From positions 1 to 32,652 of the IMG/VR virus record IMGVR_UViG_3300017700_000501: 32,652 nucleotides of DNA; one strand, given 5' to 3'. This document shows positions 1 to 32,652 of this stretch, one piece after another (the first letter of the stretch is position 1; every line of letters begins with the position of its first letter). Position numbers and translations under genes: made by a program. The notes under the pieces are model-generated. The model had not been told where the DNA came from. It worked only from the letters and a program-made list of their open reading frames with translations, and made no database searches. Source of the DNA: a virus (taxonomy: Duplodnaviria; Caudoviricetes).

Positions 1-70
1 AGGCTGGATCTCCGTCGGTCGGTTCGCATCCTAGAAACGCGGTGTGTGTCGTGGTCGAGGCTGTTGGTGG

Positions 71-370
71 TCACCATCGCTCGCTGTTCACGGTGGGCGG
101 TCGGGTCGCTGCGCCGGTGCGTTTCATGTGCCCATAGGCCGCGCCTGCGCTGCTGTTGCACGATAGGTGAGCGAGTCTCACCCTCGAGCGATCCGGCACT
201 GCAGGTGCGCCGTCGCCGAGCTTGTCGAGGTGCTCGAGGGTGCGGCTCATCCGGTGCGGGAACCTGAGCGTCATGTCGACGAGCGCACCACACAGGCAGC
301 AGTGCGACTCCTCGCGCCACACCTGCTGTTGCAGCTTGCGGTACCTGTGACCTGTCCTCGGCCCTGACAT
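71..370 (-). CDS. HNH endonuclease (packaging-associated type)
   Basis: CCLCG...TLEHLD...RLAHLSCNS motif; sits immediately upstream of the small terminase if the window is circularised, as in cos-type phages. Confidence 0.85.
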   Translation of the reverse strand: MSGPRTGHRYRKLQQQVWREESHCCLCGALVDMTLRFPHRMSRTLEHLDKLGDGAPAVPDRSRVRLAHLSCNSSAGAAYGHMKRTGAATRPPTVNSERW

Positions 371-382
371 GTGCGCAGCGTA
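371..382 (-). promoter_or_regulatory. Putative leaderless -10 element (TACGCT) for the HNH/packaging genes
   Basis: TACGCT (377-382) lies 6 nt before the ATG at 370, with no SD in between. Confidence 0.45.
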
Positions 383-387
383 CGCGG

Positions 388-418
388 CACAGCCCGGGCT
401 CGGTGAGCTCGGGCTGTG
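388..418. terminator. Stem-loop downstream of the 443-661 gene
   Basis: cacagcccgggctc-ggt-gagctcgggctgtg, a 14-bp stem with one mismatch; no U-tract. Confidence 0.45.
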
Positions 419-442
419 TCAGGTGCACACTCGGCGGCAGCG

Positions 443-3376: not shown

Positions 3377-3398
3377 TGGTGGTGGTACTCCCTGTGTG

Positions 3399-3704: not shown

Positions 3705-3705
3705 G

Positions 3706-4122
3706 TCATCCGGTGAACGACAGCCGGGCCGGGCCCGGTGCCGGCGCCTCGAGCTCGAGCTCGGGCTCGGGTGCCGGGTCGCGCTCGATCACGGGCGGCG
3801 GGATCAGCTGCGGTCGACACGCGTTCGTCAGACACTCGGGAGACCACCCGCACTCGGTCTCGAGCCAAGGGAACATGTGCCGCTGATCCGGTGTCACGTT
3901 GTCGCACGTCGGCACGAACGGCGCCTCGGTCGTCGTCGTGGTCGGCGCCTCGGTCGTCGTCGTGGTCGGCGCCTCGGTGGTGGTGGTGGTGGTCTCGCAG
4001 TAGCTCGAGCTCCTCGAGCTCGAGCAGCCCTCGTGGCTGCCACCGGCAGCAGCCGGCGCAGCAAGTGCAGCGAACCCTGCAGCGACAACCGCTGCAGCTG
4101 TGATGATCTGACGCGTGTTCAT
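3706..4122 (-). CDS. Secreted Thr/Pro-rich protein
   Basis: N-terminal signal-like MNTRQIITAAAVVAAGFAALAAPAAA; TTTTTEAP x3; six Cys; own promoter and RBS. Confidence 0.75.
   Translation of the reverse strand: MNTRQIITAAAVVAAGFAALAAPAAAGGSHEGCSSSRSSSYCETTTTTTEAPTTTTTEAPTTTTTEAPFVPTCDNVTPDQRHMFPWLETECGWSPECLTNACRPQLIPPPVIERDPAPEPELELEAPAPGPARLSFTG
3920..3991. repeat. 24-bp tandem repeat (3 units)
   Basis: ggcgcctcggtcgtcgtcgtggtc exact at 3920 and 3944, variant at 3968; encodes TTTTTEAP. Confidence 0.9.
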
Positions 4123-4163
4123 TGGTGATGCTCCCTGTTGGTGGTGGTGGTGGTGATGAGCTC

Positions 4164-10042: not shown

Positions 10043-10365
10043 CGCGGCAGCCTTGCACTCGGGAACGTCGCGCAGTCCTGCACCTCGACCACAACGAGCG
10101 AGCTCCTCGAGCACGCGGTGCATGTGCACACAGCTGTTGTGCGGCGCCCGCTGTCGTGCGGTGGTGACCCGGTGACGAGCTCGAGGTGCCCGCCGCACAG
10201 CGGGCACGTCAGATCGAACCACAGTGCGAGCTCGCGGGTCGCGAGCTCGGCGCGCGCCAGCTGCTCGGCCGACTCGCGTTCGTCGGCGACACCGCAGTGA
10301 TACGCGCAGCGCACACCTCGGCCGATGCACTCGGCGCAGTCGGCACCGATCGTGACCGCGTTCAC
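10039..10365 (-). CDS. Zinc-finger protein
   Basis: CAEC, CAYHC, CPLCGG, CTAC motifs. Confidence 0.6.
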   Translation of the reverse strand: MNAVTIGADCAECIGRGVRCAYHCGVADERESAEQLARAELATRELALWFDLTCPLCGGHLELVTGSPPHDSGRRTTAVCTCTACSRSSLVVVEVQDCATFPSARLPR

Positions 10366-11603
10366 GAGAACAGCCTCGGCGCCGCGTCGTCGTCGACACC
10401 CTCGAGCAGCCGGGCCGCGAGCTCGGCCACACCGGCAGCAGCCTCGAGCTCACCCTCGACTAGAGGTTGAGCGATCGGCTCGAACGGTGGTCGACCCTCG
10501 ACCACAGGTTGAGACTCGGCCGACGGGTTGAGGTCGACCTCGAGAAACATGCCGACACGCTGCCGGGCGAGCTCGACGTTCCGCTCGTCGAGGTCGATCG
10601 ACACCGAGTCGCGGCTGTGACCCGACGCGACCGCGGCTGTCGTGCCCGACCCACCGAACGGGTCGAGCACCACCCCCGGCCGATAGCTCGAGTGTCCACA
10701 GTCGGACCACCCGAGCGTCGTCCGGGTGACGGTGTAGCTCGAGCCCATCGGGCCGGCGCCGACTGTCCGCATCCGGGCCCGGCCGGCACCCTCGGTCACG
10801 TCGTCGAATGTGCGGGTGCTGTCGACAACACGTCGGCGCGGTTCACCGCACACGGTGCAGACCTCACGCGGGCACAGCGACCTGATCGGCACGTCGAGCA
10901 GCTTGCGCGGCCACGTCGCGTAGTGCGACCCGGTGTAGGACTCGGGCGAGACCGTCCACCAATCGAGCGGTGGTGACACCACGTCAGACCCGGGCCGCTG
11001 CTCGAGCACCGCGTCGAGGTCGAACCACCGGTCGGGCGCCCTCGTCGCGATCGTGATGTACGAGCTCGCCGGCCGGTACTTGTCGCCGAGCCGGCCGACA
11101 CCCGGGTTCGTCCGGGTCCACACGACCACGTTTCGCACGATCCACCGCCCGGCCGGCGAGGGTGCCCCGGTCAGCAGGTTGCGCCCGTACGCGAGCGACA
11201 GCCAATAGAGGTGCGGGACACCGGTCAGCGACTTGTCGAGCGGCCACTCGCCAGCCCGGCGCGCCGGCGCGGTCGCCTTCCCCTGACCATCGCGCAGCCC
11301 GCCGACCGAGTAGTCGCCACCGGGCCCACCGCTACCCGCGTACGTGTCGCCGAGCTCGACAGCGATCGACCCGTGCGGTGCGAGCGGCCGGGCCCATAGC
11401 GCAGTGAGGTCGAGCAGCGTCTCGAGGAACTCGGCCGGCGACTGTTCGGTGCCGACCTCGGCACCCTTGTCCGGGTGATCCGCTGGCAGGTACGAGCGCA
11501 GCGCGAGGAACGGCGGCGAGGTGAGCACGAGGTCGACCGAATCATCGGGCAGCACAGCGCACACGGCGCGCGTGTCGCCGACTAGATAGCGGGCGGTGGT
11601 CAT
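10362..11603 (-). CDS. Beta-class amino (m4C/m6A) DNA methyltransferase
   Basis: Catalytic motif IV LTSPPF precedes SAM motif VVLDPFGGSGTT; also HYATWP and a Cys-rich insert; strong RBS; no cognate restriction nuclease recognised. Confidence 0.9.
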   Translation of the reverse strand: MTTARYLVGDTRAVCAVLPDDSVDLVLTSPPFLALRSYLPADHPDKGAEVGTEQSPAEFLETLLDLTALWARPLAPHGSIAVELGDTYAGSGGPGGDYSVGGLRDGQGKATAPARRAGEWPLDKSLTGVPHLYWLSLAYGRNLLTGAPSPAGRWIVRNVVVWTRTNPGVGRLGDKYRPASSYITIATRAPDRWFDLDAVLEQRPGSDVVSPPLDWWTVSPESYTGSHYATWPRKLLDVPIRSLCPREVCTVCGEPRRRVVDSTRTFDDVTEGAGRARMRTVGAGPMGSSYTVTRTTLGWSDCGHSSYRPGVVLDPFGGSGTTAAVASGHSRDSVSIDLDERNVELARQRVGMFLEVDLNPSAESQPVVEGRPPFEPIAQPLVEGELEAAAGVAELAARLLEGVDDDAAPRLFS

Positions 11604-11636
11604 TGGTGGTGGTCTCCCTGTTGGTGGTGGTGGTGG

Positions 11637-14637: not shown

Positions 14638-14674
14638 ACCGACTCGAGCTCGGTCACCTCGAGCTCGAGTCGGT
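14638..14674. terminator. Perfect 15-bp stem-loop after the lysis module
   Basis: accgactcgagctcg-gtcacct-cgagctcgagtcggt. Confidence 0.6.
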
Positions 14675-16822: not shown

Positions 16823-18835
16823 CTAGAACGACCACCCTTCGACAACCGTGTTCCCCCACGTCGAGGTACCCCACGTGAACCACGTGCGCCCGACCCGCGT
16901 CGGGTCGAGGTGCAGCACCACGTACCACCCGCCGAAACCGAACATGTGCTCGAGCCCGATCACGTGGCCGTAGAGGTCGAGGTCGGAACCGATCGGCACA
17001 CCTGTGCCCGGTGTCAGCTTGGCTTTCTTGCCGACGCGCACGAGGTCGCCCTGCTCGAGCAGCTGAGCGATCGGCGCGAGTGCCGACGCGTTCGGGTCGA
17101 CGTGGAACGCGACCGAGCGGATCGTCGGGTCCGGGTCCGACAACGCGAACACGAGCCACTCGGCGATCTGCGCCGACTCCCGATCTGACCGGTGCAGCAG
17201 ACCCGACAGGCTGATCGGGTTCCGCTGCCCGATCGCAGCGACACTCGCGTCGGCCTGCCGGGTCTGCTGCCGGCCGAACTCGCTCGTCACCTGAGCGACG
17301 TTCGTAATCGACAGCTGATCGTCGAGAATCTCGAGCGAGTCAGCGAGCATCGGGAACGCGGTGCCCGCATCCTGCAGCGTCGGGTCGTCCGACAGGTACA
17401 GCTGCACCGAGGTCGACCTCGAGTCGACCTCGGCCCACTTGCGCGCAGAGAACCGCAGGTCGCCGTGTCGGTCAGCCCACACCCGGCCCTGCTCGGTCTG
17501 CTCGATCTTCTGTAGGAGCTCGAGCGCGTCGGCCTGCCGGTAGCCCTGCAGCGTCACGATCCCTGACACGTCGAGCGCGCCGAGCCGCTCGCTGTAGCCC
17601 GAGCCCGACACGATCGACTCGAGCCGCTCGTCGAGTCGCTGATTCCCCCACGCTGTGCGCGCTGCGTCGGACACCTCGAGCGCGAGCTCTGCGCACTGCG
17701 CTGTCGTCAGGTTGAGCGAGTCCCACGCGACCACGTGGTCGATCACTCCCGCGTAGCGCAGCGTCGGTGACGAACCGAACCGCTCGCGCCCGATGAACTG
17801 CTCGACTGTCGGCCGCTGTGCCGACCACGACTGTGTGGTATCGGTCGCCGGTGCGTCGTCGACATGCACGCCGTCGATCCATATGTCGAGCTTGGCCGAG
17901 TCGCAGCGGGCGAGCAGCACGTGTGTCCGACCGTCGAATAGGAACTGTGCCGACGTGAAATTGCTTTGCCACGCTCGAGCGTCCGACGCGCCGGTGCCGA
18001 ACGGCATCGACACAGCGAGTGATCCGTTCCCGTCGATGTAGAAATTCGCGGTGTTGTCCGGGTTGTTCCCGATGACCGACAGCTGACCGGTGAACAGCCC
18101 GTCGAGCACCGAGGGTGCAGTGCCGAACGGCGCGGTCATCTTCATCACCACGAGCAACATGCTCGAGCCGCCCGCGGCGCCGGTGCCCCACAGCGTCGGC
18201 ACCACCCCGTACCCGTCGCCGGTGCCGTTGCCGAACGCCTTTTCGTCACCATCGACAGCCGGGTCGAACTCGGTCAGACCACCGGTGTGTCGGCCGCGGC
18301 TGCCCGACACGCGGTCGATCCACCCTTCGGGGGACGGTTGAAACCAACGCAGCATGTTCGCGTCGGCCTGCCGGACAGCTGCGTGAAACGCGGTCTCCGG
18401 TGTGTCACCTCGAGCGAGCACCCCGGGCGTGTCCTCTGCTGTCACGTTCACGAGCGACATGCCATTGACCGCGGGCTGTTGCGGCCACCCGTTGCTAACG
18501 AACCCGACCCAACGATCTTCGGTCGTCGCGCTGTACGTCGTCGTGATCCGCACCGGCACACCGAGCCGCAGATCGCCGTAGTACGGGCCCGCGCTGTTCC
18601 GCGGGTCATAGTGCCCGAGCGTGTCCTCGAGCGTGAACGAACACGAGCCCGGTTCGATGTCCGACCTGATCCCCGCGCGGCCCGACACTGTGGTGATACC
18701 GCCCGAACCCTCGGACAGCTGCACGTCGGCGGTGACATCGACCCACGTCGCCGAGCTCAGATCGTCACGCGGTCCCGAGCCGAACGCGAACTCGACGAGC
18801 ACCTCGACCTCGGCCGGCGACCCCGCGTCGCTCAC
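16823..18835 (-). CDS. Minor tail protein with LamG/ConA-like domain
   Basis: WVDVTADV..GR..G.CSFTL.D..G.YDP.N N-terminus; central FDGRTH..IWIDG..IG..AGVIDHV; directly follows the tape measure gene. Confidence 0.75.
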   Translation of the reverse strand: MSDAGSPAEVEVLVEFAFGSGPRDDLSSATWVDVTADVQLSEGSGGITTVSGRAGIRSDIEPGSCSFTLEDTLGHYDPRNSAGPYYGDLRLGVPVRITTTYSATTEDRWVGFVSNGWPQQPAVNGMSLVNVTAEDTPGVLARGDTPETAFHAAVRQADANMLRWFQPSPEGWIDRVSGSRGRHTGGLTEFDPAVDGDEKAFGNGTGDGYGVVPTLWGTGAAGGSSMLLVVMKMTAPFGTAPSVLDGLFTGQLSVIGNNPDNTANFYIDGNGSLAVSMPFGTGASDARAWQSNFTSAQFLFDGRTHVLLARCDSAKLDIWIDGVHVDDAPATDTTQSWSAQRPTVEQFIGRERFGSSPTLRYAGVIDHVVAWDSLNLTTAQCAELALEVSDAARTAWGNQRLDERLESIVSGSGYSERLGALDVSGIVTLQGYRQADALELLQKIEQTEQGRVWADRHGDLRFSARKWAEVDSRSTSVQLYLSDDPTLQDAGTAFPMLADSLEILDDQLSITNVAQVTSEFGRQQTRQADASVAAIGQRNPISLSGLLHRSDRESAQIAEWLVFALSDPDPTIRSVAFHVDPNASALAPIAQLLEQGDLVRVGKKAKLTPGTGVPIGSDLDLYGHVIGLEHMFGFGGWYVVLHLDPTRVGRTWFTWGTSTWGNTVVEGWSF

Positions 18836-21279: not shown

Positions 21280-21282
21280 CGG

Positions 21283-21462
21283 TCAGCCCTTCCCCTTCGG
21301 TGATCCCATGATCGACCACCCGATCGGCGGCAGCTTGCGCAGCGCCGTTGCGTACACCTCGAGCTCGTCGCGAGTCATGTTGTCGAGGTCGTCCGGCACG
21401 AGGTGGAACCAATGCGACAGCGCCGGCAGCTGTGCCCTCAGCTGCCGGCGTGGGCTTCCGGG
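21283..21462 (-). CDS. -1 frame extension of the tail assembly chaperone (gpGT-like)
   Basis: Open -1 frame encoding ...LRAQLPALSHWFHLVPDDLDNMTRDELEVYATALRKLPP..., ending just before the TMP start. Confidence 0.7.
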   Translation of the reverse strand, partial: PGSPRRQLRAQLPALSHWFHLVPDDLDNMTRDELEVYATALRKLPPIGWSIMGSPKGKG

Positions 21463-21803
21463 CGGTCCTCGTCGTCGTCGTCGCCGAGGATCTGTACGTC
21501 GATGTCGCTGTCCATCGACAACGCCTCGGCGATCGCGTCGAATGTGACACCCGAGTCATCACCCTCGCCGAGCCGGGCGAGGAACACGAGCGCCGCGACC
21601 ATGAACAACGCGGGCTTGTCCGACCCGAGAGCGTTGAACACTTCCACGTAGGTGAGCCGGGCCTGCTGCCACAGTGCGAGCTCGTGTCGGTGCGTGATGT
21701 CCGCGGTGTCGAACCGGTACGTCTGACCGTCGACCTTGATGTCGATTCGTACACGATTGTCACCGGTCTTTTTCTGAGCTCGGCGGGCGGGTCGGCTTGG
21801 CAT
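21438..21803 (-). CDS. Tail assembly chaperone
   Basis: 121 aa; located upstream of the TMP; RBS AGGAG. Confidence 0.75.
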   Translation of the reverse strand: MPSRPARRAQKKTGDNRVRIDIKVDGQTYRFDTADITHRHELALWQQARLTYVEVFNALGSDKPALFMVAALVFLARLGEGDDSGVTFDAIAEALSMDSDIDVQILGDDDDEDRPEAHAGS

Positions 21804-21828
21804 CGGGCGGTCACTCCTGAGTAGTCGG

Positions 21829-21857
21829 TCGAGCTCGAGCTCGAGCTCGGGCTCGAG
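21829..21857. repeat. Intergenic TCGAGC array
   Basis: tcgagctcgagctcgagctcgggctcgag between the stop at 21859 and the chaperone RBS. Confidence 0.85.
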
Positions 21858-21858
21858 G

Positions 21859-22305
21859 TTAGGACACCTCGAGCCCGATCAGCGCGAACAGTGTCAGCAC
21901 TTCCTCGGTGAACGCGTCGCGTATCTCGGGCTCGCGGGTGCGGATCTGCTGTGCGATCACGTACGGGCCATCACCGGCGAGCACGTCCCACCGGTTACCG
22001 ACCCACTCGGGGAACTGCGGTCGCTTGCCACCGAGGAACGCGCCGAGCCCAAACGGCACTTTCGACGTGTTGCGGATCGCGAGCTCTGCACCCTTGACCG
22101 AGCCGGCAGCGAGCAGCGTCGAGGCTGCCCGCTGCTGCTGCGCTGTGCCCGACGCGGCGCCGGCCCTCGAGCCCTGCTCGACGATCTTGCCGATCCGGCG
22201 GTGCGCTGTCCGTAGATCCTTCGTCGAGCCCGACACAGCCTTGAGCCCCGCGCGTAGCTCGGCCATCGCGGCCCGGTCGACCTCGAACGCGGGTGCGACA
22301 GCCAC
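21859..22305 (-). CDS. Neck/tail completion protein (HK97 gp10-like)
   Basis: Size, position and ELRAGLKA...LR.AH..I pattern. Confidence 0.55.
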   Translation of the reverse strand: MAVAPAFEVDRAAMAELRAGLKAVSGSTKDLRTAHRRIGKIVEQGSRAGAASGTAQQQRAASTLLAAGSVKGAELAIRNTSKVPFGLGAFLGGKRPQFPEWVGNRWDVLAGDGPYVIAQQIRTREPEIRDAFTEEVLTLFALIGLEVS

Positions 22306-22308
22306 CGG

Positions 22309-23301
22309 TTAGACGGCGGTGATGTAGGCGGCTGTGATCGGCTGATTGGTGCCGAGGGTGCGAGCGACACCGCTGATCGACTGCGACGGCATCTCGAGCG
22401 AGAGACCACCGAGCGACACCTCGTCGAGTCGCACAGCCGGACACGTCAGGTTGAGCGCCGGGTACGTCGACCCGGTGATCGGTGCCGGACCCTGCGACAG
22501 CGCCTCGAACTTGATCAGCGTCGATGCTCGAGCGGTCGCAGCGAACTTCGCCCACAGCGCGAGGTCGGTGCGGTCGCACTCGAACTCGACCGCGACCTCG
22601 CGGTACCCGTCCGACACCGGTTCTTTGCGACCGGTGCTCGGGCTCGCACCCGAGCCGGCCATGTAGTGCCGGTCGGTCTTGAGCTTGCTGTCGCACGACA
22701 CCGACCACGAGGTGACCGGGACCACCACGTCGTCGACCTCGACCGACGCGTTCGCCCACGAGAACAACTCGGCGCCCGTCGGGTAGCTCGCAGTCGCGAG
22801 AGCGGTGCCGGTCGACAGGTCGGCGAACACGAGCTCGGCCTCGAAGTTGAGCACACCCTCGACCTCGCTCGACAGTGTCCACTTGCCGATCTTGCCACCG
22901 GCCCACGTGAACGCCTGATCGGTGTCCTGACACGCGCCGAGCGGCACATTCTCCTGATACGTGAACGACAGCCCGCACAGGTCGTTCATCGTTGCGGTGT
23001 GCGTCTCGGCGCCGGTGACCGGGCTGTTCGTCGCGACCTGCACGTCGCCGAGCATGTGCAGCAGCCACCAATCGAACCCGAGCGTCAGCGCCTCGATCTG
23101 CCGGGTGCCGCTGCCGCCGAGGCGGTACGGCAGGAACCGGTCGGCAGCCATCACGATCTGACCGGATCGCAGCGACTCGGACTCGGTTCGGCCGGTCTCG
23201 AGCGCGATCGGGTCGCCGGGTAGGAACTCGAAAAACGTGTCGACCACGACAGCTGTGCCGTACGTGGTCTCATTCTTGAGCCCGATCTGATGATCGACCA
23301 T
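22309..23301 (-). CDS. Major tail (tube) protein
   Basis: IGLKNETTYGTAV start; SFTYQ...GGKI..W.L pattern; 330 aa. Confidence 0.8.
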   Translation of the reverse strand: MVDHQIGLKNETTYGTAVVVDTFFEFLPGDPIALETGRTESESLRSGQIVMAADRFLPYRLGGSGTRQIEALTLGFDWWLLHMLGDVQVATNSPVTGAETHTATMNDLCGLSFTYQENVPLGACQDTDQAFTWAGGKIGKWTLSSEVEGVLNFEAELVFADLSTGTALATASYPTGAELFSWANASVEVDDVVVPVTSWSVSCDSKLKTDRHYMAGSGASPSTGRKEPVSDGYREVAVEFECDRTDLALWAKFAATARASTLIKFEALSQGPAPITGSTYPALNLTCPAVRLDEVSLGGLSLEMPSQSISGVARTLGTNQPITAAYITAV

Positions 23302-23304
23302 CGG

Positions 23305-23571
23305 TTAGCCCTCCTCGGGTGCTGCGACCTCGGTCGCTGTGTCGGTGGGCGGTGTGGTCTGACTCTTGCTCTTGCTCTTGGACTTGCTCGAGCTCGAGGA
23401 GCTCGAGCTCCTCGACTTCACGGGCGCCCAATTGTCGCGCTGCTCGAGCAGCCCGGCGGCGATCGTGTCAGTGCACTCGAGCACAGCACCCTTTTCGACA
23501 GCCTGCCAGCGCGCCGGCGCGACCTCGACCTCGACCGATGCGAACTTGCCGGTGTAGCGCACCTTTTTCAT
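23305..23571 (-). CDS. Small virion-module protein with Ser/Lys/Thr tail
   Basis: ATG at 23571 overlaps the stop at 23568; tail SSSSSSSSKSKSKSKSQTT. Confidence 0.65.
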   Translation of the reverse strand: MKKVRYTGKFASVEVEVAPARWQAVEKGAVLECTDTIAAGLLEQRDNWAPVKSRSSSSSSSSKSKSKSKSQTTPPTDTATEVAAPEEG

Positions 23572-24059
23572 GAGCCCTCGATTCTTGTGTCGAACGTGAT
23601 GAGCAGCCGGCAGCCTGAGCCGACACCCTCTTTCGTGTACCACGGGTTCGGCCCGTCGAGCTCGGTTAGCACAGCCGACACGAGCCCCGGCAGCCCGGCG
23701 CCGCTGAGCTCGAGCGTCGGCGAGTCAGCGAGCACCGAGCGCACGAGCTCGGCGCCGGCCTCGGCTGATACGTCGACCTCGGTGAAGTCGGCAGTACCGC
23801 TCGCCCACGCGAGCGACAGCACCTCGAGCGAATACCGATCGTTGTAGGCCTTGCGACCCGACTTCATCGTCGGCACCGACGTGCCCACGAACTCGAGGTC
23901 GCCGAGCGCAATGATCCCCGCTGCGACCTGATCGCGCTCGAGACCACGGCGCACGATCGTCGAGCTCGGCACACGCGACGGGTCGGCGCGCCGGGCGAGC
24001 TCGAGGAGCTCGAGCAGTCGGGCCAGCGCAGCAGTACGCGTGAACGCTGTAGCCGTCAC
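23568..24059 (-). CDS. Tail terminator-like protein
   Basis: 163 aa; located between the connector and major tail genes. Confidence 0.55.
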   Translation of the reverse strand: MTATAFTRTAALARLLELLELARRADPSRVPSSTIVRRGLERDQVAAGIIALGDLEFVGTSVPTMKSGRKAYNDRYSLEVLSLAWASGTADFTEVDVSAEAGAELVRSVLADSPTLELSGAGLPGLVSAVLTELDGPNPWYTKEGVGSGCRLLITFDTRIEGS

Positions 24060-24895
24060 GCGATCGCCATTGCCGGCCGGCGGAGCTCGGTGATCAGCGG
24101 GTCGAGCGTCAGGTACCCGGTCCACCGGCCTGCAGCCGGGTCCGGGGTCGAGTACCTGATCGACACACCGCCGTCGGGTGAGGTCTCGCTGATCGCGTTC
24201 GACGGCGCCTGAGCGCCACGCGAGAACACCTCGGACCTGCACACCTTCTTGAGCTCACGCGACAGCTTCGGCGGTGGGCGGTCGAGACCCGACTCGAGGT
24301 GCACCTCGACCGCGGCGCCACGAGGAAACGTGCCCTCGAGCTCGAGGAACCCGGCCGACGGGTCGAGCGTGTAGCGGGTGCCGGCGACGAGCTCGCCGTC
24401 GATCCACACCGCGCGGATCACCCGCGGCGCGTTGTGCTCGAGGAGTAGGAACCCGAGCCCGGTGCCGCGGTGGTGCTCGATGTCATAGCCCGGCGTGAAC
24501 CTCACGTTGCACAGATCCTCGACATGCTCTGACCATTCGTCGATCACCTCGTCGAGCAGCTGATCAGGGAACCGGGTCAGGTCGGTCATGCCGGGCTCGG
24601 CGCGCAACGCGCCTCGAGTCACGATCAGCGACCCGATCACCTCGACCTCGACCTCGGCCGTCGCCGGCAGCGAGTCGACCACAGCGTCGACCGACACGAG
24701 CAGCCGGTCGAGCTCGTCGGTGTGCGACGCGGCGAGCAACCGGATCGACACACTCGAGCCGACCACGGTGCACACCGGTGCCGGCGAGAGCTCCTGCCCG
24801 TCCGCGGTGGTGCACACAGCTGTCGGTGTGCCGGTCGGCGCAGCGTTGAACGGGTCGGTCAGCACGTCGACAGTCGATCCTCGCGCTACGCGCAT
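24056..24895 (-). CDS. Head-tail connector/adaptor
   Basis: C-terminal gp6/gp15-like pattern (VEDLCNVRF...G.D.PP..L...TG..T.DPLI); extra N-terminal beta domain. Confidence 0.7.
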   Translation of the reverse strand: MRVARGSTVDVLTDPFNAAPTGTPTAVCTTADGQELSPAPVCTVVGSSVSIRLLAASHTDELDRLLVSVDAVVDSLPATAEVEVEVIGSLIVTRGALRAEPGMTDLTRFPDQLLDEVIDEWSEHVEDLCNVRFTPGYDIEHHRGTGLGFLLLEHNAPRVIRAVWIDGELVAGTRYTLDPSAGFLELEGTFPRGAAVEVHLESGLDRPPPKLSRELKKVCRSEVFSRGAQAPSNAISETSPDGGVSIRYSTPDPAAGRWTGYLTLDPLITELRRPAMAIA

Positions 24896-24908
24896 TCGTA
24901 CACCTCGA

Positions 24909-25730
24909 TCAGATGAGCTCGGGCCGGCGCCACCACATGAAACTAGCCGCGGCAGCGAGGATCAGCAGCGGACCGGGTATCACCTCGGCGGCAGCGAGCG
25001 CCACCACCGGCCCGGCCGCGGTGTGCAGCAGTCGCACAGTGTCCGTCGCGACGAGCAGCTGCGCGTGCGCAGCGACGAGCGTCGACACAACAGCGACCGA
25101 CGGGCGCACGAGCGCAGCGAGCGACGCGCCCCACGGCCACAGCCACAGCCACGCGTCGCGGGCCCGGTCGCGGTGCGCCTCGAGCGCAGTCCTCACCGGG
25201 TGATTGTGCACCTCGAGCAGCGTCGGGTTCCCCGCCGTCACCGGGTCGAGCTCGGGCCTCGAGCACACAGCCCGGATCGCGGGTGCGAGCAGCCCGACGA
25301 GCAGCAGCGGGTGCCACGCCCACAGTGCAGCGAACACCGGGGTCGACTCCTTGACCGAGCCGGCGACGAGCACGAGCACCACCGCAGCCGGCCACCACCC
25401 GAGCTCGAGGAGCGCAGCAGCCCACAGACCCACAGCGAGCGCCGGCAGATCGACACCCACCGGGCGCACGACCACCGGGCCGAGCAGACCCGGCAGCGCC
25501 ACGAGGAGCGCAGCAGCGCCCACAGCCGGCCCGAGCTCGAGCCCTCGGCCGAGTGCGAGCACGACCATCGCTGCAGCTGTCAGCGGCCACGACAGCGACC
25601 ACACGATCCACCACCGGCGCGGCACGTCCCGGCACACGAACGGCAGCAGCCACCGCAGGTGGAACGGGCGCGCCACCCGGTGCCCCTGCCCGGCGAGCAC
25701 GTACCGCGCGGAGTCGGGCCCGAGTCTCAT
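24909..25730 (-). CDS. Multi-pass membrane protein, GT-C glycosyltransferase-like
   Basis: About 7-8 hydrophobic segments; early D..RY and PF.LR.LLP, then loop D (VGVDLP) and GSVKES; coupled to the GT gene. Confidence 0.55.
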   Translation of the reverse strand: MRLGPDSARYVLAGQGHRVARPFHLRWLLPFVCRDVPRRWWIVWSLSWPLTAAAMVVLALGRGLELGPAVGAAALLVALPGLLGPVVVRPVGVDLPALAVGLWAAALLELGWWPAAVVLVLVAGSVKESTPVFAALWAWHPLLLVGLLAPAIRAVCSRPELDPVTAGNPTLLEVHNHPVRTALEAHRDRARDAWLWLWPWGASLAALVRPSVAVVSTLVAAHAQLLVATDTVRLLHTAAGPVVALAAAEVIPGPLLILAAAASFMWWRRPELI

Positions 25731-26590
25731 TTCGACCCCTTCCGCTGCCGGCGTGTCGCCCGGTTGCCACCGATGACCGGTGCGCCCACGAGCCCGGTCT
25801 CGACCTCCTGTGGAGGTTGAGACTTTCCACCCTGCCGAGGGTGCACCCTCGAGCTCGACTCGACGTTGAGAGTCGGCGGGTGATCGGCCGGCCCGACCCA
25901 CGTCGTTTTCTGATGATTCGTCGGCACACCGGTGTGCACCCACGTCGAGAACCCGAGCGCAGCAGCACGGGCACACATACTCAGATCCTCGGACAGATAG
26001 CGCCCGGCGCCGGCCGGCACCTTGTCGTACCACGTCGGCCCGTACTCGGCGCCGATCGCCTCGAGCGCGTTGCGGTGGATCAGGATGCACGCGGAACCGG
26101 TGCCGGCGCACTGCACCACAGTGTTCGGCGGGTACTCGAGCGCAGCAGCGAACACGCGCTCGCCGTTGTCGCCCTCGGTGAATTGGAAGATCGTCGGCCG
26201 AGCTCGGCACCGGTAGCCGCGCAGCCCGTCCGGTTCAGCCTCGAGCCACGCGAAACACAGCGCACCGACAATCGGTCGTTCCACCGGGTCGGCGACCTCG
26301 AGCAGCGCGTCGAGGGTGCCCGGCGCGAATCCCATATCGGTGTCGAGAATGAACAGCCACTCGCCGTCGGTCTCGAGGAACTGCGACGCGACAAGGTTGC
26401 GCGCCTCGATCAGATTGCCGGCGTGGCACTTCTGTGCGATCCACGTCGACAGCCGGTGATCGTGCGCCGCGTCGTATAGCACGAGGTCGAGCAGCGCAGC
26501 GTGCCAGCTGTGCGCGACCTCCTGAGCGTGAACGTACGCGAGCACCACGTCGGGACGCGCCGACGCGGGCTCGGTGCCCGGCGCGGTCAC
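25727..26590 (-). CDS. GT-A fold (GT2-like) glycosyltransferase
   Basis: ARNLVASQFL..EWLFILDTDM (DxD), GSACILIHR, LSEDLSMC, H-K motifs. Confidence 0.85.
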   Translation of the reverse strand: MTAPGTEPASARPDVVLAYVHAQEVAHSWHAALLDLVLYDAAHDHRLSTWIAQKCHAGNLIEARNLVASQFLETDGEWLFILDTDMGFAPGTLDALLEVADPVERPIVGALCFAWLEAEPDGLRGYRCRARPTIFQFTEGDNGERVFAAALEYPPNTVVQCAGTGSACILIHRNALEAIGAEYGPTWYDKVPAGAGRYLSEDLSMCARAAALGFSTWVHTGVPTNHQKTTWVGPADHPPTLNVESSSRVHPRQGGKSQPPQEVETGLVGAPVIGGNRATRRQRKGSK

Positions 26591-26859
26591 TTGCGCCGGG
26601 TGCTGCGACGTTCGCCCGGCCGGGCGGTTGCCTGCTCGAGCACGTCGGCATTCGACGTGCGGATGCTGCCGGCGTCGAACGAGCGAACTCGAGTCGGCAC
26701 CGGTGCGAACGCATCCGGGTTCGCGAGCACAACCGGGTCGGTTGCGTCCCACGCCTCGCCGGCAGTGAGCATGATCCGCTCAGAGCCGAGCGACACACCG
26801 CAGGTCTGTCGCACGAACACGTGCGCCGGATCGGCTGCCTTGCTGGTCGGTGTTGCCAT
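26587..26859 (-). CDS. Small capsid-associated protein
   Basis: GEAWDATDPVV...VLEQATARPGERR pattern seen after actinophage capsid genes; RBS AGGAGG. Confidence 0.7.
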   Translation of the reverse strand: MATPTSKAADPAHVFVRQTCGVSLGSERIMLTAGEAWDATDPVVLANPDAFAPVPTRVRSFDAGSIRTSNADVLEQATARPGERRSTRRK

Positions 26860-26902
26860 TGTGGTGATTCCTCCTGTGGGCGGTGGGCGGTGGGCGGTGT
26901 TC

Positions 26903-26943
26903 GTCGAGGTGCGCCGACACCGCCCGTGGCGGCGCACCTCGAC
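26903..26943 (-). terminator. Stem-loop after the major capsid gene
   Basis: gtcgaggtgcgccg-13 nt-cggcgcacctcgac, a perfect 14-bp stem. Confidence 0.65.
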
Positions 26944-26960
26944 AGCTGTTGTTCGCTGCG

Positions 26961-28415
26961 TCAGTTCTGCAGCAGACGGAACCCGTTGTCGTTGATCGAA
27001 TCGGCACCGACTCGAGCGTGTGCGAACCATCCGCGCTCGCCGGTCGGGCGGTTGTTCGTCACGTCGAACAGGTGCGGCACGAGCTCGACCTCCATACCTG
27101 CGCGCTGTGCGATCAGGTAGTTGCGGAAGTCGCCGACGACCAACCGGTTCGCGGCTGCGGTGCCGGTCGTCATCGCCGGTGCGTAGCTCGCGAACTCGAC
27201 CGGTCGCTGCCGGACGGTCTCGAGCTCCTGCGTCAGATCGACGGTGACGAACGACAGGTTGTTCGCAGCGCCGAACGAGGCGACCTCGTTGCCGACGGTG
27301 TGCGACATGACCCACGTCGCGTTCTGCTTGAACCGGTCCGGCAGCTGACCCCACACCTTGTTGATGTCGGTGCCCGAGAACGTGCCCGCGGTGGTCACCG
27401 CGACCTCGACGTTCGTGTTCGCGTCGAGCGCCGTGAAGATACCGAACGGTTCCTCGGAACCGTCGCCGGCACCGACTGCGAACTTCTGCGCCTTGAGCTC
27501 TGCGAACCCCTCGGCGAGCAGCGTCGACATCTCGGAGGCGAACCCCGGGTAGTCGCCGCCGACCTCGATGGTGTACGGGATGAACCCGCGCGCCATGTGC
27601 GAGTTGACGATCGGCTGAGCGAGCGTCGGCTGACCGTTGGTGACGGTCGCCGATTCCGCTTGGAACGCCCACGTCACACCGGCCGAGCTCACACCGCGCC
27701 ACGCGTCGGTCGTGATCGTCTCGATCCGACTGATCGCCTCGAACGGGTTGAGCGAGCCCTGCGCGGTCAGGATGATCGACGGGTCGATCAGCACCGGCAC
27801 ACCGAACCCACCGGCGGTGTCGGTCGTGATGTTCATGGCGCGGAACTCGGCCCACGCCTGCATCGCTCGCGACTCCTCGACGGTCAGCACGGGCTGTGCC
27901 TGCGTGACCATCTTCATCCACGCGGAGCGGTACGCGTCGCTGTCGGTGATCAGCATGCGGCGCACGATCTGATCGCCGTCGAAGTTGCGCGACTTGCCCT
28001 GTCGCACGAGCGACTCGACACGATCACCGATCGCGGTGTCGACCTCGGCCGAGCGGGTCTCGAGCAGTGCGAGAGCCTGATCGCGGGCAGCGCCGCGGCC
28101 GAGCTCGAGCACGTTGCCGGCGTCGGCGACCTCGGTGCGCCGCATGATCTGCGGTGCGTCGGTCTCCGGTGCGCTGGCGCGGGTCGCAGCGACTGGCTCG
28201 AGCTCGGCGATCCGCGCGTCGATCGTGTCGAGCTCGGTGTCGAGCCCGGCGACCGCGGTGCGGGCCTCGTCGAACGCGGCCGACTCGGCCTCGTTGAGCT
28301 CGGTACGAGCCTCGGTCTCGGCGGTCTCGGTGACCGCTTCCATCGCCTCGACGAACTCGGCGCGCTGCGCCTCGAGCTCGAGCCGCTTTGCCTTGAGCAT
28401 CTGCAGGAACTTCAT
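26961..28415 (-). CDS. Major capsid protein (HK97 fold with N-terminal delta domain)
   Basis: Coiled-coil N-terminus; GGFGVP, GDGSEEPFGI, VVGDFRNY, ARVGAD motifs. Confidence 0.93.
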   Translation of the reverse strand: MKFLQMLKAKRLELEAQRAEFVEAMEAVTETAETEARTELNEAESAAFDEARTAVAGLDTELDTIDARIAELEPVAATRASAPETDAPQIMRRTEVADAGNVLELGRGAARDQALALLETRSAEVDTAIGDRVESLVRQGKSRNFDGDQIVRRMLITDSDAYRSAWMKMVTQAQPVLTVEESRAMQAWAEFRAMNITTDTAGGFGVPVLIDPSIILTAQGSLNPFEAISRIETITTDAWRGVSSAGVTWAFQAESATVTNGQPTLAQPIVNSHMARGFIPYTIEVGGDYPGFASEMSTLLAEGFAELKAQKFAVGAGDGSEEPFGIFTALDANTNVEVAVTTAGTFSGTDINKVWGQLPDRFKQNATWVMSHTVGNEVASFGAANNLSFVTVDLTQELETVRQRPVEFASYAPAMTTGTAAANRLVVGDFRNYLIAQRAGMEVELVPHLFDVTNNRPTGERGWFAHARVGADSINDNGFRLLQN

Positions 28416-29230
28416 CGGGTATGCCCTCCTCGGGATCGTTCGGTTGCTGCTCGAGCGACTGCTGTCGACACGAGCGATCGGGCCGTCGAGTGAGTCGAGC
28501 TCGGCTCGTCGGGTGCTTCACCGAGGGTGCTCGAGGCGGCGCCCGGATCTGACGGCGCAGATCGTAGCTCGCGGGTCCGCTCGAGGTAGTGATCGGTCAG
28601 GCAGCGCACACCGGCCGACGCGCCCGCGTAGGCGGGAAACACGACCGGGCCGAACTCGGCGCACTTGAGCTCGGTGATCGTCCGCTCAGGCAGCCCGGTC
28701 GGGTTCCACTCGGACACACCCGGTTCCTCGTTCCACTCCTCGCGCACCACCGAGAACCGGAACGATGCACCGAGCAGCGAGCCGTGCGACTCGCCGCTGA
28801 TCGTCCGGCCCTGCAGTAGAGGCAGGATGCGGTCGCGGTTGTAGTCGGTGTCGAGCAGCGGCACCTCGTACCACGGTCCGACAGTCTCCTCGCGGAGCTC
28901 GGTGATCGGGCCGAGCGGCGAGTCGCCGACGAACGGGTCGAACCCGTGGTCGAACTGCACCCGGATCTGATCGCGTCGCTCGGCGAACGTCTTTGCGAAC
29001 GCGCCGAACGCGATCCGCTCGAGGAACTCGCCCTCGTACCACGACCGGATCGTCGCCCACTGATCGAACACGGCGAAATGCCCGCACAGCAGCGAGCTCG
29101 AGCCGGTGTCGCCCTCGGCGCGGGTCTGCTCGACGAGCTCGAGCACGCGGTCGGCGCGAGCCCCTGCTGCCGGCGCCGGTGCCGAGTAGCCCCGATAGAG
29201 ATTCTCGCGTGGCGCGGTGATCGTGGTCAT
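28412..29230 (-). CDS. HK97-family prohead protease
   Basis: GHFAVF, FLERIAFGAF.KT, FDHG, SFRF, EFGPVVFPAY motifs. Confidence 0.9.
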   Translation of the reverse strand: MTTITAPRENLYRGYSAPAPAAGARADRVLELVEQTRAEGDTGSSSLLCGHFAVFDQWATIRSWYEGEFLERIAFGAFAKTFAERRDQIRVQFDHGFDPFVGDSPLGPITELREETVGPWYEVPLLDTDYNRDRILPLLQGRTISGESHGSLLGASFRFSVVREEWNEEPGVSEWNPTGLPERTITELKCAEFGPVVFPAYAGASAGVRCLTDHYLERTRELRSAPSDPGAASSTLGEAPDEPSSTHSTARSLVSTAVARAATERSRGGHTR

Positions 29231-30609
29231 TGTGGCTGCCCTCCCGGGTCGGTGTCGGGCGGTGGTACGAGCTCGGGCGGCAGCGCCGCGGCGAGGTTCG
29301 CGCCGGCCCGGTTCAGAATCTCGCGGGCCTCCTGCGCAGTGATCACCTTGCCAACAGCGAGATAGATTTTCTGCAGCGCACCGGCGAGCTCCACCGGGTC
29401 GAGCGAGCGGCCCTCGGTGCCGAGGAGCGCAGCAGCGTTGACCATCGGCGGGATGCCCGGCACGTCGAACTCGGGCCCGAACCCGGCCTCGTCCTCGAGC
29501 ACCCGAGCCTCGTTCACCGTGCGCAGCCGCGCGTCGAGCGCGAGTTTGTGGATCTTGAGCCGGGTCTCGGGGTCCGACTTGAGGAACGCGTCGCGGTTCA
29601 GCTTGACGATACGAGGTGCCGCGACGATCGCAGAAAACGCCTCCTCGATCGCGAGCAAGTAGCCGTCGGCCGAGTGCTTGAGGTAGTGCAGGTCGGCCTG
29701 CGACACGTTCGCATAGGTGACCGACTGACCCGACACAGCCGAGTAGACCATCGCCGGCGGCACCCGCCAGAAACGACACGCCTGCTCGACAGCAAACCGA
29801 ATGAGCTCGATGAACTGCGTGTTGTTCGGGTCCGACTGCACCTGTGTGTACTGCAGACCCGAGCCCATCACCGCGACCTCGCGCGACCCCGGTCGAATCG
29901 CTGCGTAGAACGAGGCTTTGATCCTCTTCGCCATGCCCTCGTCGAGCTCTTTGTCGCTGTGCAGGATCGCGGAAGGGTGCCCGCCGTCGGTGAAGAAACG
30001 AGCCCCGTACCCCTCGGCCTGCAGCGCAGCAGTGAGCGAGGTGCCCGCGTAGTCGAGCGGCGACAGCGCGAACGGCGACCCGGGCGGGATCATCTTGCCG
30101 GCGACATGCCACACCGGGCCATGCGGCCACAGCGCCTGCTCGCCCTTCCCGCGGATCGTGACCACAGCCACGCCGTCGTCGCGCACTGTGCGATTCGTGA
30201 CACCCGACGCGTGCATCAGGTCGATGCGCGTCGGGTTGAGGTCGCGGTCGAGGTTGTTGCCGACCCATCCGAACGCGTTGCCATCGGTCAGCAGCGAGTA
30301 CATCAGCTGATACAGCCACACCCGGCGAGACACGAGCGGCGACGGCCGGGTGATCACAGCGGGCGGCAGCGTCGGCAGCCGGGCGCCCGCGGTCGCGAGC
30401 ACCACGTCGATCGGGAGACTCGACACGGTGGTCGCGAGTACGTCGATGCACGCCCACGCTGCCGCGTTGTGTAGCGCCTCGTCCTCGGTGATCGGCCCGG
30501 TGCCGTAGCTCGAGACGGTCATCGCGGCGATCTGCTCGAGCGTGACCGATGGGAACTGCGACCGCACCTCGGCAGCTGCCGGCGCCAACGCCCGGCGGAA
30601 CAGCCCCAC
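29227..30609 (-). CDS. Portal protein (HK97 family)
   Basis: WACIDVLA, LLTDGNAF, FFTDGGHP, FWRVPP, TVNEAR..ED motifs. Confidence 0.92.
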   Translation of the reverse strand: MGLFRRALAPAAAEVRSQFPSVTLEQIAAMTVSSYGTGPITEDEALHNAAAWACIDVLATTVSSLPIDVVLATAGARLPTLPPAVITRPSPLVSRRVWLYQLMYSLLTDGNAFGWVGNNLDRDLNPTRIDLMHASGVTNRTVRDDGVAVVTIRGKGEQALWPHGPVWHVAGKMIPPGSPFALSPLDYAGTSLTAALQAEGYGARFFTDGGHPSAILHSDKELDEGMAKRIKASFYAAIRPGSREVAVMGSGLQYTQVQSDPNNTQFIELIRFAVEQACRFWRVPPAMVYSAVSGQSVTYANVSQADLHYLKHSADGYLLAIEEAFSAIVAAPRIVKLNRDAFLKSDPETRLKIHKLALDARLRTVNEARVLEDEAGFGPEFDVPGIPPMVNAAALLGTEGRSLDPVELAGALQKIYLAVGKVITAQEAREILNRAGANLAAALPPELVPPPDTDPGGQPQ

Positions 30610-30788
30610 TACCGCGGGCCTTCGGCAGCCGGCGCGGTCGAGCTCGAGCCCTCGAGCACCACACCGAGCACCACGAGCGCGCAGCCCGCGGCACCGAGGA
30701 ACGCTGCCAGACCGAACGCGAGACCGAGCGCCGCGGCGATCAGCGCCATACCGACGAGCTCGAGGAGCGTCGTCAGCGCCGAGCTCAC
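30609..30788 (-). CDS. Small membrane protein between terminase and portal
   Basis: 59 aa with two hydrophobic helices; overlaps both neighbours. Confidence 0.65.
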   Translation of the reverse strand: MSSALTTLLELVGMALIAAALGLAFGLAAFLGAAGCALVVLGVVLEGSSSTAPAAEGPR

Positions 30789-32218
30789 CACGCGTACACC
30801 GGTTTGCCCGCGTCCTCGACCGGGTTCGTCGCCCCCCACCGGGCGAGTGTGATCGCGACCAATGGGCTGATGTCGACCGTTGTGTCGTTCCGTGCCCACG
30901 TCCACACGTCACCTCGTCGTCGTCGGGTTGCTGCAGCTAGTGCGGTGTCGAGCTCAGTCTGCCCGATGTGCCGCACTGTGTGAGCGACCACAGCGTCGAA
31001 CAGCTGCCCACAGGCAGCAGCGTACTCGCGCCCGTTCGGTTGACGAACGACCACACCCGCGGTCACGAGCTCGTGAATCAGCGAGGCAGCCGGGCCGGCC
31101 GGGTCGATGACAACGCTGCCGCCGTGGTCGGCGACGAGCTCGATCACTCGCGCCACGATCCACGAGGTGCCGAACCGGTTTTCGACGAGCTCGAGGTGCA
31201 CCCCGTCGCTGACCCCGATGCTGCCGGCACCGCGATCCGGTGTGATGTCGACCGCGAACGTCGGTGCGACCTCGGGATCGCGCTTGTGCGCGGGGTCGAG
31301 AACCGGCATTTTCTGCCAGTGCTCCGCCGCGAACACCGGGTCGCGGCGCCCGGCCGACCACCGGTTCAGGTACCCGCGCTCGAACTCGCTGAGTTTCATC
31401 GTTGAAAAGTCGGTCGCGATTCGCTCCTCGGTGACGGTGTGACCGAGCGCAGGCATGCACGACCACCACGTCGCGGGGTCCGCGGGGTCTGCGTCGTCAT
31501 CGGCCGACCACTCGAAGTAGGCGACCCGCGAGGTCGCGCCGAGCTCGACGATCATCCGGCCGGCCTCGACTTTCGACCACAGGTAGGTCGAGTCGGCGGT
31601 GCCGGCGGTGCTGATGATCCACAGCTGCGGATCGGGCCGGGTCATCATCGCCGGTTTCATGAACTGTTCGATCCGGTGATCGGTCTGTTTGAACGCCTCG
31701 TCGATCACACCGAGGTCTAGATCGTCACCGTGCCCGGCCGACTCGGTGGTCGCCTCGATCCCCCACGTCGACCCGTTGCGGAAGATCATCGCCTCCTGAC
31801 CATTCGCCCGGCGCGTCGAGAACAGCGCGGCGAGCGGGGACGCCTCCATATCGGCGACGAACGTGGTCTCCCACTTTTTCCGCGCAGCGTTGCGGGTCTG
31901 CGCCGTGTAGGTGATGACCTGCCGGGCCCATGTCACCGCGCGGTGAGCCTGCACAGCCTCGAGGATTGTCGTTTTCCCTGAGCGCCGCGGCACCGTCACG
32001 ATAATTTCGCGGTACCACAGCAGCCCGGTCTCGGGGTCGACCTCGAGCGCGATATCGGCGACCTGCTGCTGCCACGGCATGAACGGCTTACCCTGCCGCT
32101 CGGCGATCGCAGCAGCGCGCGGCCCGAGCGTCAACCGCTCGGGATTACGAGGAGTCGCCCACCGCGGCACCGCCGTCGGTCGGTGTCCCACTGTCGCGCA
32201 GGAACTCGAGCCGGTCAT
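30785..32218 (-). CDS. terL: Terminase large subunit
   Basis: PWQQ, Walker A VPRRSGKT, Walker B VIDEA, IISTAG, nuclease FAVD and DISPLVA; exact start uncertain. Confidence 0.95.
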   Translation of the reverse strand: MTGSSSCATVGHRPTAVPRWATPRNPERLTLGPRAAAIAERQGKPFMPWQQQVADIALEVDPETGLLWYREIIVTVPRRSGKTTILEAVQAHRAVTWARQVITYTAQTRNAARKKWETTFVADMEASPLAALFSTRRANGQEAMIFRNGSTWGIEATTESAGHGDDLDLGVIDEAFKQTDHRIEQFMKPAMMTRPDPQLWIISTAGTADSTYLWSKVEAGRMIVELGATSRVAYFEWSADDDADPADPATWWSCMPALGHTVTEERIATDFSTMKLSEFERGYLNRWSAGRRDPVFAAEHWQKMPVLDPAHKRDPEVAPTFAVDITPDRGAGSIGVSDGVHLELVENRFGTSWIVARVIELVADHGGSVVIDPAGPAASLIHELVTAGVVVRQPNGREYAAACGQLFDAVVAHTVRHIGQTELDTALAAATRRRRGDVWTWARNDTTVDISPLVAITLARWGATNPVEDAGKPVYAW

Positions 32219-32582
32219 CGGCCGCGACCTGCGGTGCGAGCTCGGTCAAGGTCTCGCGGAGCTCGCGCGCCACCGGTGCCGGCGACTCGAGATACCCGGC
32301 GAGCTTGCGAGCGAGCTCGAGCGCGAGCTCGGCGAGCGCGGCGTGATGCTTCGACCATTGATCGGACGCCTTGCGCTCGGTGATGAACGCCGTCACCGCG
32401 ACCACGAGCTCGGTCGATTCGCGGGCAGCTGCAGCAGCAGCGCGACCCCCGGCCGGCGCACGTTTCGCCGGTGCCCGCTTGGCCGCGCCGCGTTTCGCGG
32501 GTGCCTTCGGTGCCGGCGAGCTCGGCGACTTGCGCGCCGGTCGTTTGCTCGAGCTCGAGGTCGGTCGTTTCGCTGCAGTCAT
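32145..32582 (-). CDS. terS: Terminase small subunit
   Basis: Upstream of terL; LALELARKL...VARELRETL.EL...DD.L..LR pattern; Lys/Ala/Pro-rich N-terminus; RBS AGGAG. Confidence 0.75.
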   Translation of the reverse strand: MTAAKRPTSSSSKRPARKSPSSPAPKAPAKRGAAKRAPAKRAPAGGRAAAAAARESTELVVAVTAFITERKASDQWSKHHAALAELALELARKLAGYLESPAPVARELRETLTELAPQVAADDRLEFLRDSGTPTDGGAAVGDSS

Positions 32583-32652
32583 CGGCTCGAGCTCCTGTCG
32601 AACACCCCCACACGATCATCGGGGAGAAATCTTGGAGGTGGCTGGCCTCTCC

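Follow-up and report, generated by a model that had tools for sequence, protein, structure and literature searches.

Excess of the palindromes CTCGAG and GAGCTC across an actinophage-like genome and its recurrence in unrelated phages

Phages are expected to lose restriction palindromes. The window studied here, the whole 32,652-base viral record IMGVR_UViG_3300017700_000501 (68% GC), raises the question of why a phage genome should hoard two of them, CTCGAG and GAGCTC, while other short words are nearly missing from it. An earlier sequence-only reading had attributed these sites to a process acting on DNA, had linked it to the phage's own DNA methyltransferase and to its YqaJ and RecT genes, and had compared it with highly iterated palindrome 1 (HIP1) of cyanobacteria. 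Our analyses show that the phenomenon is real and more general than the window, and that it is probably not due to the window's methylase. Many unrelated phages hoard the same two palindromes strongly enough to alter their proteins.

Two over-used words and a broad purge in the window

CTCGAG was found 190 times in the window (5.8/kb, 17-fold over an order-0 and 3.3-fold over an order-2 Markov expectation) and GAGCTC 157 times (4.8/kb, 14-fold and 3.5-fold), giving a combined density of 10.6/kb. The excess is genome-wide (1..32652) and goes with the near-absence of CCWGG, CAGCTC/GAGCTG, CTGGAG, GGAGCC, GGATCC, GACGTC, CCATGG and other words. The sequence-only reading had counted about 25 CTCGAG sites in the first 3 kb; positions 1-3000 hold exactly 25, about 1 being expected from base composition, and the tape measure gene, described as lower yet still elevated, holds 6 in 2448 bp.

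As a codon control, 300 synonymous shuffles of 45 gene models of our own were made, with proteins and codon usage held fixed. Coding CTCGAG was found 167 times against 74 expected (by frame 130/16/21 against 70/1.2/2.8), and coding GAGCTC 133 times against 63 (103/11/19 against 59/0.9/2.8). The 3067 bases outside gene models had 7.5/kb CTCGAG and 7.2/kb GAGCTC. Codon shuffling therefore does not remove the excess in any of the three frames, and spacers have it too, which bears out the claim that more than Leu-Glu codon choice is at work. These data support a DNA-level process that is independent of frame and symmetric between strands.

The proteins are shifted as well. Leu-Glu (LE, 131 against 56, 2.3-fold) and Glu-Leu (EL, 111 against 56, 2.0-fold) were the two most over-used dipeptides, despite ordinary totals of Leu and Glu. 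LE was coded CTC GAG in 130 of 131 cases, and 34 of the 43 Ser-Ser pairs were TCG AGC or AGC TCG. In stretches aligned to unenriched homologues the weighted counts were 22 LE and 20 EL in the window against 14 and 12; LD was raised equally (22 against 12), so this homologue comparison alone is not specific.

Small genes and spacers were densest, with 20-44 sites/kb in many small genes compared to 2-6/kb in most long structural genes. Gaps between site clusters were random (coefficient of variation 1.0) and reached 1074 bp, with no evenness within 33 kb, a length too short for periods of 10-90 kb. Three serine runs pointed out earlier proved to be motif-coded, at about 24-30 sites/kb. They lie on the minus strand in a small secreted-type gene with the motif out of frame (3706..4122; 10 sites, 24/kb), in a small tail-region gene whose run is coded TCG AGC (23305..23571; 8 sites, 30/kb), and in the likely small terminase subunit TerS (32145..32582; about 30 sites/kb in Ser and Glu-Leu runs). 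The last was assigned by its position before TerL, a family search giving no match.

The array of overlapping motif copies in non-coding DNA among the tail genes (21829..21857) and the motif-built hairpin after the lysis genes (14638..14674; z -4.1, and -5.2 as RNA) are both present as described. The hairpin is likely a terminator, and the relative introduced below has a different motif-built hairpin at the equivalent place (z -5.0 as RNA). The concatemer CTCGAGCTCGAG, described earlier as frequent, occurred 15 times against 11.8 predicted; a count this close to the word-overlap prediction is not a separate signal, and slippage was rejected on the same 12-mer count. Fold-back extension was rejected because arms of at least 4 were found at 58 of 190 and 103 of 157 sites, no more than the roughly 44% and 66% that the flanks predict. 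Recombination at the motif was also rejected, since contig loose ends in run X1 match other window parts with or without the motif, reflecting self-similarity and not joints.

The sequence-only reading had overlooked a strong purge of other words. CCAG/CTGG occurred 43 times in the window against 386 expected, CCWGG 0 against 122, CAGCTC 0 against 54, CTGGAG 1 against 56, GGAGCC 0 against 34, GGATCC 0 against 8 and GACGTC 1 against 16, and Leu before G was coded CTC in 455 of 480 cases. The purge hits both strands and is therefore not translational; the missing CAG CTC likewise points to a strand-symmetric effect. Some of the purged words we take to be known restriction sites, of the BamHI, NcoI, AatII, BpmI and EcoRII types.

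Two models were used to ask how far such losses go. A permissive model with penalties only, none of its 375-715 terms being positive, reproduced 148-152 of the 167 CTCGAG in genes, where shuffles alone give 74, and 122-127 of the 133 GAGCTC. In a lean model of codons, all di- and trinucleotides and the hard-purged words, CTCGAG ranked first and GAGCTC fourth among 2078 hexamers of the window. The purge accounts for much of the excess and a roughly tenfold pull on both words is left over, so that the window shows funnel and pull together. Across 19 lineages, 4 of the 18 single-substitution neighbours of the two words were drained (CTGGAG and CAGCTC to 0.08-fold, GAACTC and GATCTC to 0.22-fold), the remainder being level or raised. 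The share of testable 6-bp palindromes missing altogether was 23% in enriched lineages, compared with 9% for the 55 control phage loci and 1% for the 15 stretches of host DNA. Ultraviolet avoidance and a general bias of GG-to-CG damage were both rejected, since TC is over-represented and two enriched records, G590 and G608, have abundant CCAGG.

Turnover, recurrence and the host side

The sole true relative found, G001, is 29.4 kb long, syntenic with the window over 28 genes at 41-76%, and carries 118 CTCGAG and 151 GAGCTC; scanning metagenomes with the tail tube added no further close relative. The purged sets of the two genomes differ, as changing targets predict: CAGCTG occurs 41 times in the window and once in G001, CCCGGG 18 times and 0, AGCGCT 0 and 9, ATCGAT 0 and 10, and CCWGG 0 and 68. 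In G001 the pull is mainly on GAGCTC (lean-model weights 0.2 for CTCGAG and 1.5 for GAGCTC). Retention was seen at 35 of 101 CTCGAG sites, mostly where LE was retained. Codons were retained inside the motif in 79 of 130 and 68 of 120 cases and outside it in 107 of 189 and 125 of 215 (p = 0.49 and 0.82), and out-of-frame sites in 5 of 38 cases against about 19% for other hexamers. Sites turn over without excess conservation, as judged by one divergent pair with 56% identity at fourfold-type codons and hence limited power.

At 16 capsid-homologue loci (38-63%) CTCGAG stood at 0-0.8/kb, 8 of them being at or below 0.05/kb. A combined density of at least 6/kb was reached at 0 of 38 tape-measure loci and at 4 of 65 terminase loci, one of these being G001. 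Kin that purge CTCGAG itself are in keeping with a word that is retained or lost according to the host. Related phages at L053, L055, L693 and L691-L692 keep GAGCTC (2.2-3.6/kb) without CTCGAG, or are without both; those that keep GAGCTC alone show that the two words can be uncoupled.

Two motif-based scans (19 matches; about 220 matches, 80 with flanks) and the homology loci together gave 97 stretches of at least 4 kb, and 66 of them had at least 4.5/kb, the highest density among enriched stretches being 14.9/kb. At least 7/kb was reached by 28 stretches of at least 8 kb, falling in 19 protein-sharing clusters, a number inflated by motif-based selection and perhaps by counting non-overlapping pieces of one genome separately. 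The motif played no part in the discovery of just four: the window, G001, L280 and L263. The enriched set includes 15.7-kb siphoviruses, a Mu-like myovirus, and integrase-bearing and polymerase-bearing phages; scans of part of the proteins of seven of them found no shared gene. In eight near-complete phages the pull was +1.1 to +4.6 on CTCGAG and +0.8 to +4.4 on GAGCTC, and weights in three control phage sets were near zero. Matched control scans returned loci of at least 7/kb in 21 of 75 cases for CTCGAG/GAGCTC, 8 of 56 for GTCGAC/GACGTC and 0 of 76 for CTGCAG/CAGCTG. The CTCGAG/GAGCTC pair is special but not unique, and a second, weaker hoarded pair (GTCGAC/GACGTC) may exist.

Two further observations concern single loci. 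GTCGAC and GACGTC are hoarded at 7-8.6/kb in L502, L541, L520, L538 and L533. L366, an enriched viral contig at 50% GC (4.2 and 4.4/kb), retains CTGGAG.

The host of the window is likely an actinomycete, as indicated by terminase matches and by the distribution of terminase and methylase kin. A search of 50,697 phage records matched the window terminase mostly to actinophages, at about 33%; within the class that contains Acidimicrobiales, 4 of 251 genomes had terminase kin and 2 of 301 had methylase kin, and no terminase kin occurred in 161 Deinococcota. Deinococcota were set aside as hosts on these terminase counts, which are suggestive only. In actinomycete chromosomes both words reach 2.0-2.8/kb each, mostly in frame: the maximum per word was about 2.0/kb in the 251 genomes, 2.8/2.7 per kb in 121 genomes of the Gaiellaceae-containing class and 2.8/2.4 per kb among 10 picked genomes, as read from tables with rounded genome sizes. 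A dense chromosomal locus, L137, was discounted as a coiled-coil gene in a genome with 1.9/2.0 per kb overall. A host chromosome with the same bias had been named as the finding that would undo a phage-specific process; no sampled bacterial chromosome has the two-word bias, in a sample that does not surely include the true host. A survey of 156 incomplete genomes of the Acidimicrobiales-containing class gave XhoI-family nucleases in 4 and SacI-family nucleases in at most 1 (weak); nucleases of other families can also cut these sites.

Explanations of the two-word excess

We tentatively favour, at somewhat less than even confidence, the explanation that repeated escape from changing host restriction drained sequence into two tolerated words, CTCGAG and GAGCTC. 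It is favoured because of the purge, the lineage-specific purged sets, the purge-or-hoard split among kin, the turnover, the random spacing, and the build-up in weakly constrained DNA. Host restriction systems would change and the phage would repeatedly lose their target words, the purged words presumably being targets of defence. Each purge would shift Leu/Glu-adjacent sequence (CTG GAG, GAG CTG, CAG CTC, GAG ATC) to the nearest tolerated word. CTCGAG and GAGCTC would be words that are used heavily and seldom cut by hosts, and the residual pull may have been left by past purges no longer visible as zeros. The words would have no site-specific job and would accumulate where protein constraint is weak.

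Several results weigh against restriction escape. The lean-model weights in the window (+2.4 for CTCGAG and +2.2 for GAGCTC; z 8.9 and 6.7) correspond to the tenfold pull. Many terms of the penalty-only model can mimic attraction and the doubled LE/EL is not covered by it; at out-of-frame sites it recovers about 50-80%, where a free model also under-predicts. G001 is equally enriched with much weaker purging of CCAG, CAGCTC and CTGGAG, and G597 has the largest gain, yet just 14 purged words. Many purged words are asymmetric, whereas PMC6286503 reports no phage avoidance of Type I/IIG sites. XhoI-type nucleases are present in the likely host class. Finally, some of the 161 Deinococcota have 3.1-3.4 CTCGAG/kb, with GAGCTC near 0.1/kb and CCAG abundant, so a pull on CTCGAG can exist in a chromosome.

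Such a pull would be expected if one or both words were marked by a host enzyme and the site-making strand were favoured in gene conversion or methylation-coupled repair, an Elhai-type ratchet modelled in section 3.4 of PMC4390886. As phage DNA replicates and recombines more often in a given time, it would move further along the ratchet than the chromosome. The residual pull is indeed word-specific (CTCGAG ranks first in the window and in 5 of the 8 near-complete phages), sites turn over as continual replenishment predicts, and just 4 of 18 neighbours were drained; the Deinococcota add a chromosomal precedent. However, two words would require two marks, and seven chromosome samples (17-34 kb of coding DNA each), though none is a proven host, had their sites in frame and near-zero weights (-0.5 to +0.5 and -0.9 to +0.4). 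If Vsr-type repair acted at GAGCTC, GAACTC should become scarce, yet the window has it at 0.8/kb against 0.64 in controls; MutS/MutL are missing from actinomycetes according to PMC6159521 and PMC8228993. We regard the ratchet as the chief alternative to restriction escape, though as rather less likely than not. The broader idea that a widespread host-side system of GC-rich bacteria reads or repairs both words on incoming phage DNA, and that unrelated phages purge or pack them (7-15/kb) and rewrite their proteins in doing so, is possible if doubtful; it would make the phage case a viral counterpart of HIP1 and suggest that a pathway of defence, self-marking or repair is still to be described. 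Word density could also be selected in itself: as marks resembling self DNA, as decoys or as binding sites, the words would weaken a host defence or attract a host protein, and their number would matter but not their position. The convergence across unrelated phage types, the 2.3-fold LE shift, and the rare codons used for out-of-frame CTCGAG (16 against 1.2; 21 against 2.8) would fit, but random spacing with such long gaps, the low density of most long genes, the lack of excess conservation and of a phage gene in common make density selection unlikely.

The phage's own enzyme, to which the sequence-only reading had linked the sites, is a beta-class N4C/N6A DNA methyltransferase (10362..11603, minus strand; PF01555, E 7e-19) whose catalytic SPPF precedes the S-adenosylmethionine (SAM)-binding DPFxGxG, as in the RsrI/PvuII fold class. 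A structure model (pLDDT 68) matches the fold of M.RsrI, M.PvuII and CcrM, which gives the class and not the target motif, and no cognate restriction gene was recognised. Self-methylation would make 190 XhoI-type sites tolerable; the enzyme is found in the window and, at 69% identity, in its sole close relative, both of them enriched, and amino-methylases occur in enriched G005, G591, G603, G606 and possibly G604. Against this, only the relative is enriched among 14 homologue loci: 11 of them (10 contigs), with homologues 42-53% identical, have 0.6-1.9/kb combined, and two at about 30% identity have 2.9-3.2/kb. PF01555 was no commoner in enriched than in control records, many of which are fragments (9 of 37 and 8 of 24, p = 0.56), and PF00145 was found in 1 of 30 enriched records (G001, weak). 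Among 11 enriched records at least 89% complete, PF01555 is present in G005, G603 and G606, G604 has an NPPY-bearing frame and G600 is ambiguous. In the other six (G595, G597, G599, G605, G608, G609) no methylase was seen by family search, part-gene Pfam scan, or a motif screen giving only matches without a SAM motif, searches that a very divergent enzyme could escape; two methylase-negative genomes are only 15.7 kb. Enrichment does not require the phage methylase family and recurs in unrelated phages. The window's methyltransferase is likely not the cause, and protection or creation of sites by a phage enzyme of its own appears quite improbable. Nor was the YqaJ/RecT link supported, neither family being found among 126 proteins from seven other enriched phages (about half to four-fifths of the called genes of each). 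Since unrelated viruses are enriched without the window's methylase gene, the cause likely lies in host defence or marking pressure, not in a phage enzyme. Plain amelioration to a similarly biased host, or a codon-pair preference, is very improbable: tetramer bias does correlate with actinomycete chromosomes (r 0.3-0.7), and hosts too prefer CTC before G (0.68-0.90 against 0.98), but the highest chromosomes (among 251, 121 and 161 genomes and the 10 picked) have about 5.5/kb combined, roughly half the density of the window, their sites are in frame with LE at 0.9-1.4-fold and no pull, and the absence of CAG CTC again indicates a strand-symmetric effect.

To our knowledge no mechanism for HIP1 has won agreement in 30 years. 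With related lineages that either purge or hoard the words, small phage genomes offer many independent contrasts and a cheap system for separating selection from biased repair. The sets of purged and hoarded words may also help to assign hosts and to predict host methylomes.

Other features of the window and comparison with known systems

Nearly all window genes are on the minus strand, including terminase, portal, protease, capsid, tail tube, tape measure, amidase, YqaJ, RecT, the methyltransferase and an HNH-bearing replication initiator; no integrase was recognised among them. The siphovirus-type morphogenesis module (TerL, portal, protease, capsid, tail tube, tape measure; 18832..32218, minus strand), assigned by family matches, identifies the contig as an actinophage-like tailed phage. 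CheckV completeness of the record is 45%; the contig bearing the best methylase match has 32,735 bases, so the window may be nearly whole. A single DNA data set was found to contain it, a freshwater metagenome that may be its source, and no RNA data set was listed for it. The RecT-like annealing protein (12076-12831; PF03837) and the YqaJ exonuclease (12824-13834; PF09588) are both encoded on the minus strand. A second methyltransferase-like gene (6807-7397) matched general SAM-binding families only, and an open reading frame at 71-370 has an HNH-like cysteine/histidine pattern without a family match. Glycosyltransferase-like and membrane-protein genes (24909-26859) directly follow the capsid gene, and a glycosyltransferase beside the capsid is preserved in 12 of the 16 capsid loci.

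A 24-37 bp repeated element at 3031-3067, 4131-4154, 9010-9037, 11596-11637 and 14075-14102 lies across the ribosome-binding site and start of several early genes, which probably share it as a regulatory leader. An imperfect inverted repeat of 17 bp, CTCRACY-N3-RGTYGAG, is found at 1205-1221, 10455-10471, 10497-10513 and 25854-25870 (4 matches against 0.18 expected, the pattern being derived from the same copies), and in L092 at 6842-6858 and 6926-6942. In the window as in the relative, two copies sit, operator-like, within the tail of the methyltransferase gene, upstream of the gene for the replication initiator. A 24-bp tandem repeat encoding a Thr-rich linker (3902-3994) has a copy-number variant contig in run X1. 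In that run a second phage, about 83% alike, co-occurs with the window at one-fifth of the contig depth, and C-G transversions are the commonest differences between the two.

HIP1 (GCGATCGC) and the alternate HIPs of cyanobacteria, as described in PMC4390886 and PMC5861425, are likewise short palindromes present in all frames and in spacers that override codon and residue choice; the phage words stand 14-17-fold over base expectation. The phage case is viral and involves two overlapping 6-mers, whereas HIP1 is chromosomal. It also differs in density (5-6/kb against about 0.5-2.5/kb), in sites that are not conserved, on the evidence of one divergent pair, where HIP1 sites are (PMC5861425), in spacing that is random within 33 kb, in being coupled to a broad purge of other words, and in an enrichment that methylase presence does not track. 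HIP1 has been linked to DNA uptake in PMC13756078, and this has no evident phage counterpart. The earlier analogy stands for abundance and fails for site conservation, and no even spacing was seen within 33 kb. Because the sites are not conserved, we do not file the phage case as HIP1, despite its HIP-like abundance and frame independence. In the Deinococcota chromosomes sampled CTCGAG alone can be high and CCAG is abundant, whereas in the window both words are high and CCAG is purged.

No report of an excess of the CTCGAG/GAGCTC pair in phages was found in the literature searched, which mostly excluded subscription journals and did not include supplements. The nearest phage precedent, going by the sections consulted of Siranosian 2015 (PMC4841201), is the GATC/GGATCC excess of subcluster B3 mycobacteriophages, likewise a genome-wide, unexplained over-use of a restriction palindrome in an actinophage lineage. 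That excess is about 4-fold, is given without a codon control in the section consulted and is confined to one subcluster, whereas the window has a different pair, a stronger and codon-controlled excess, and recurrence in 19 clusters. The near-complete loss of palindromes in lineage-specific sets that is described in the studies on phage restriction-site avoidance (Rusinov 2018, PMC6286503; 2015, PMC4687349) is found in the window, with similar hard zeros. Those studies concern site loss; the window adds hoarding and many asymmetric purged words.

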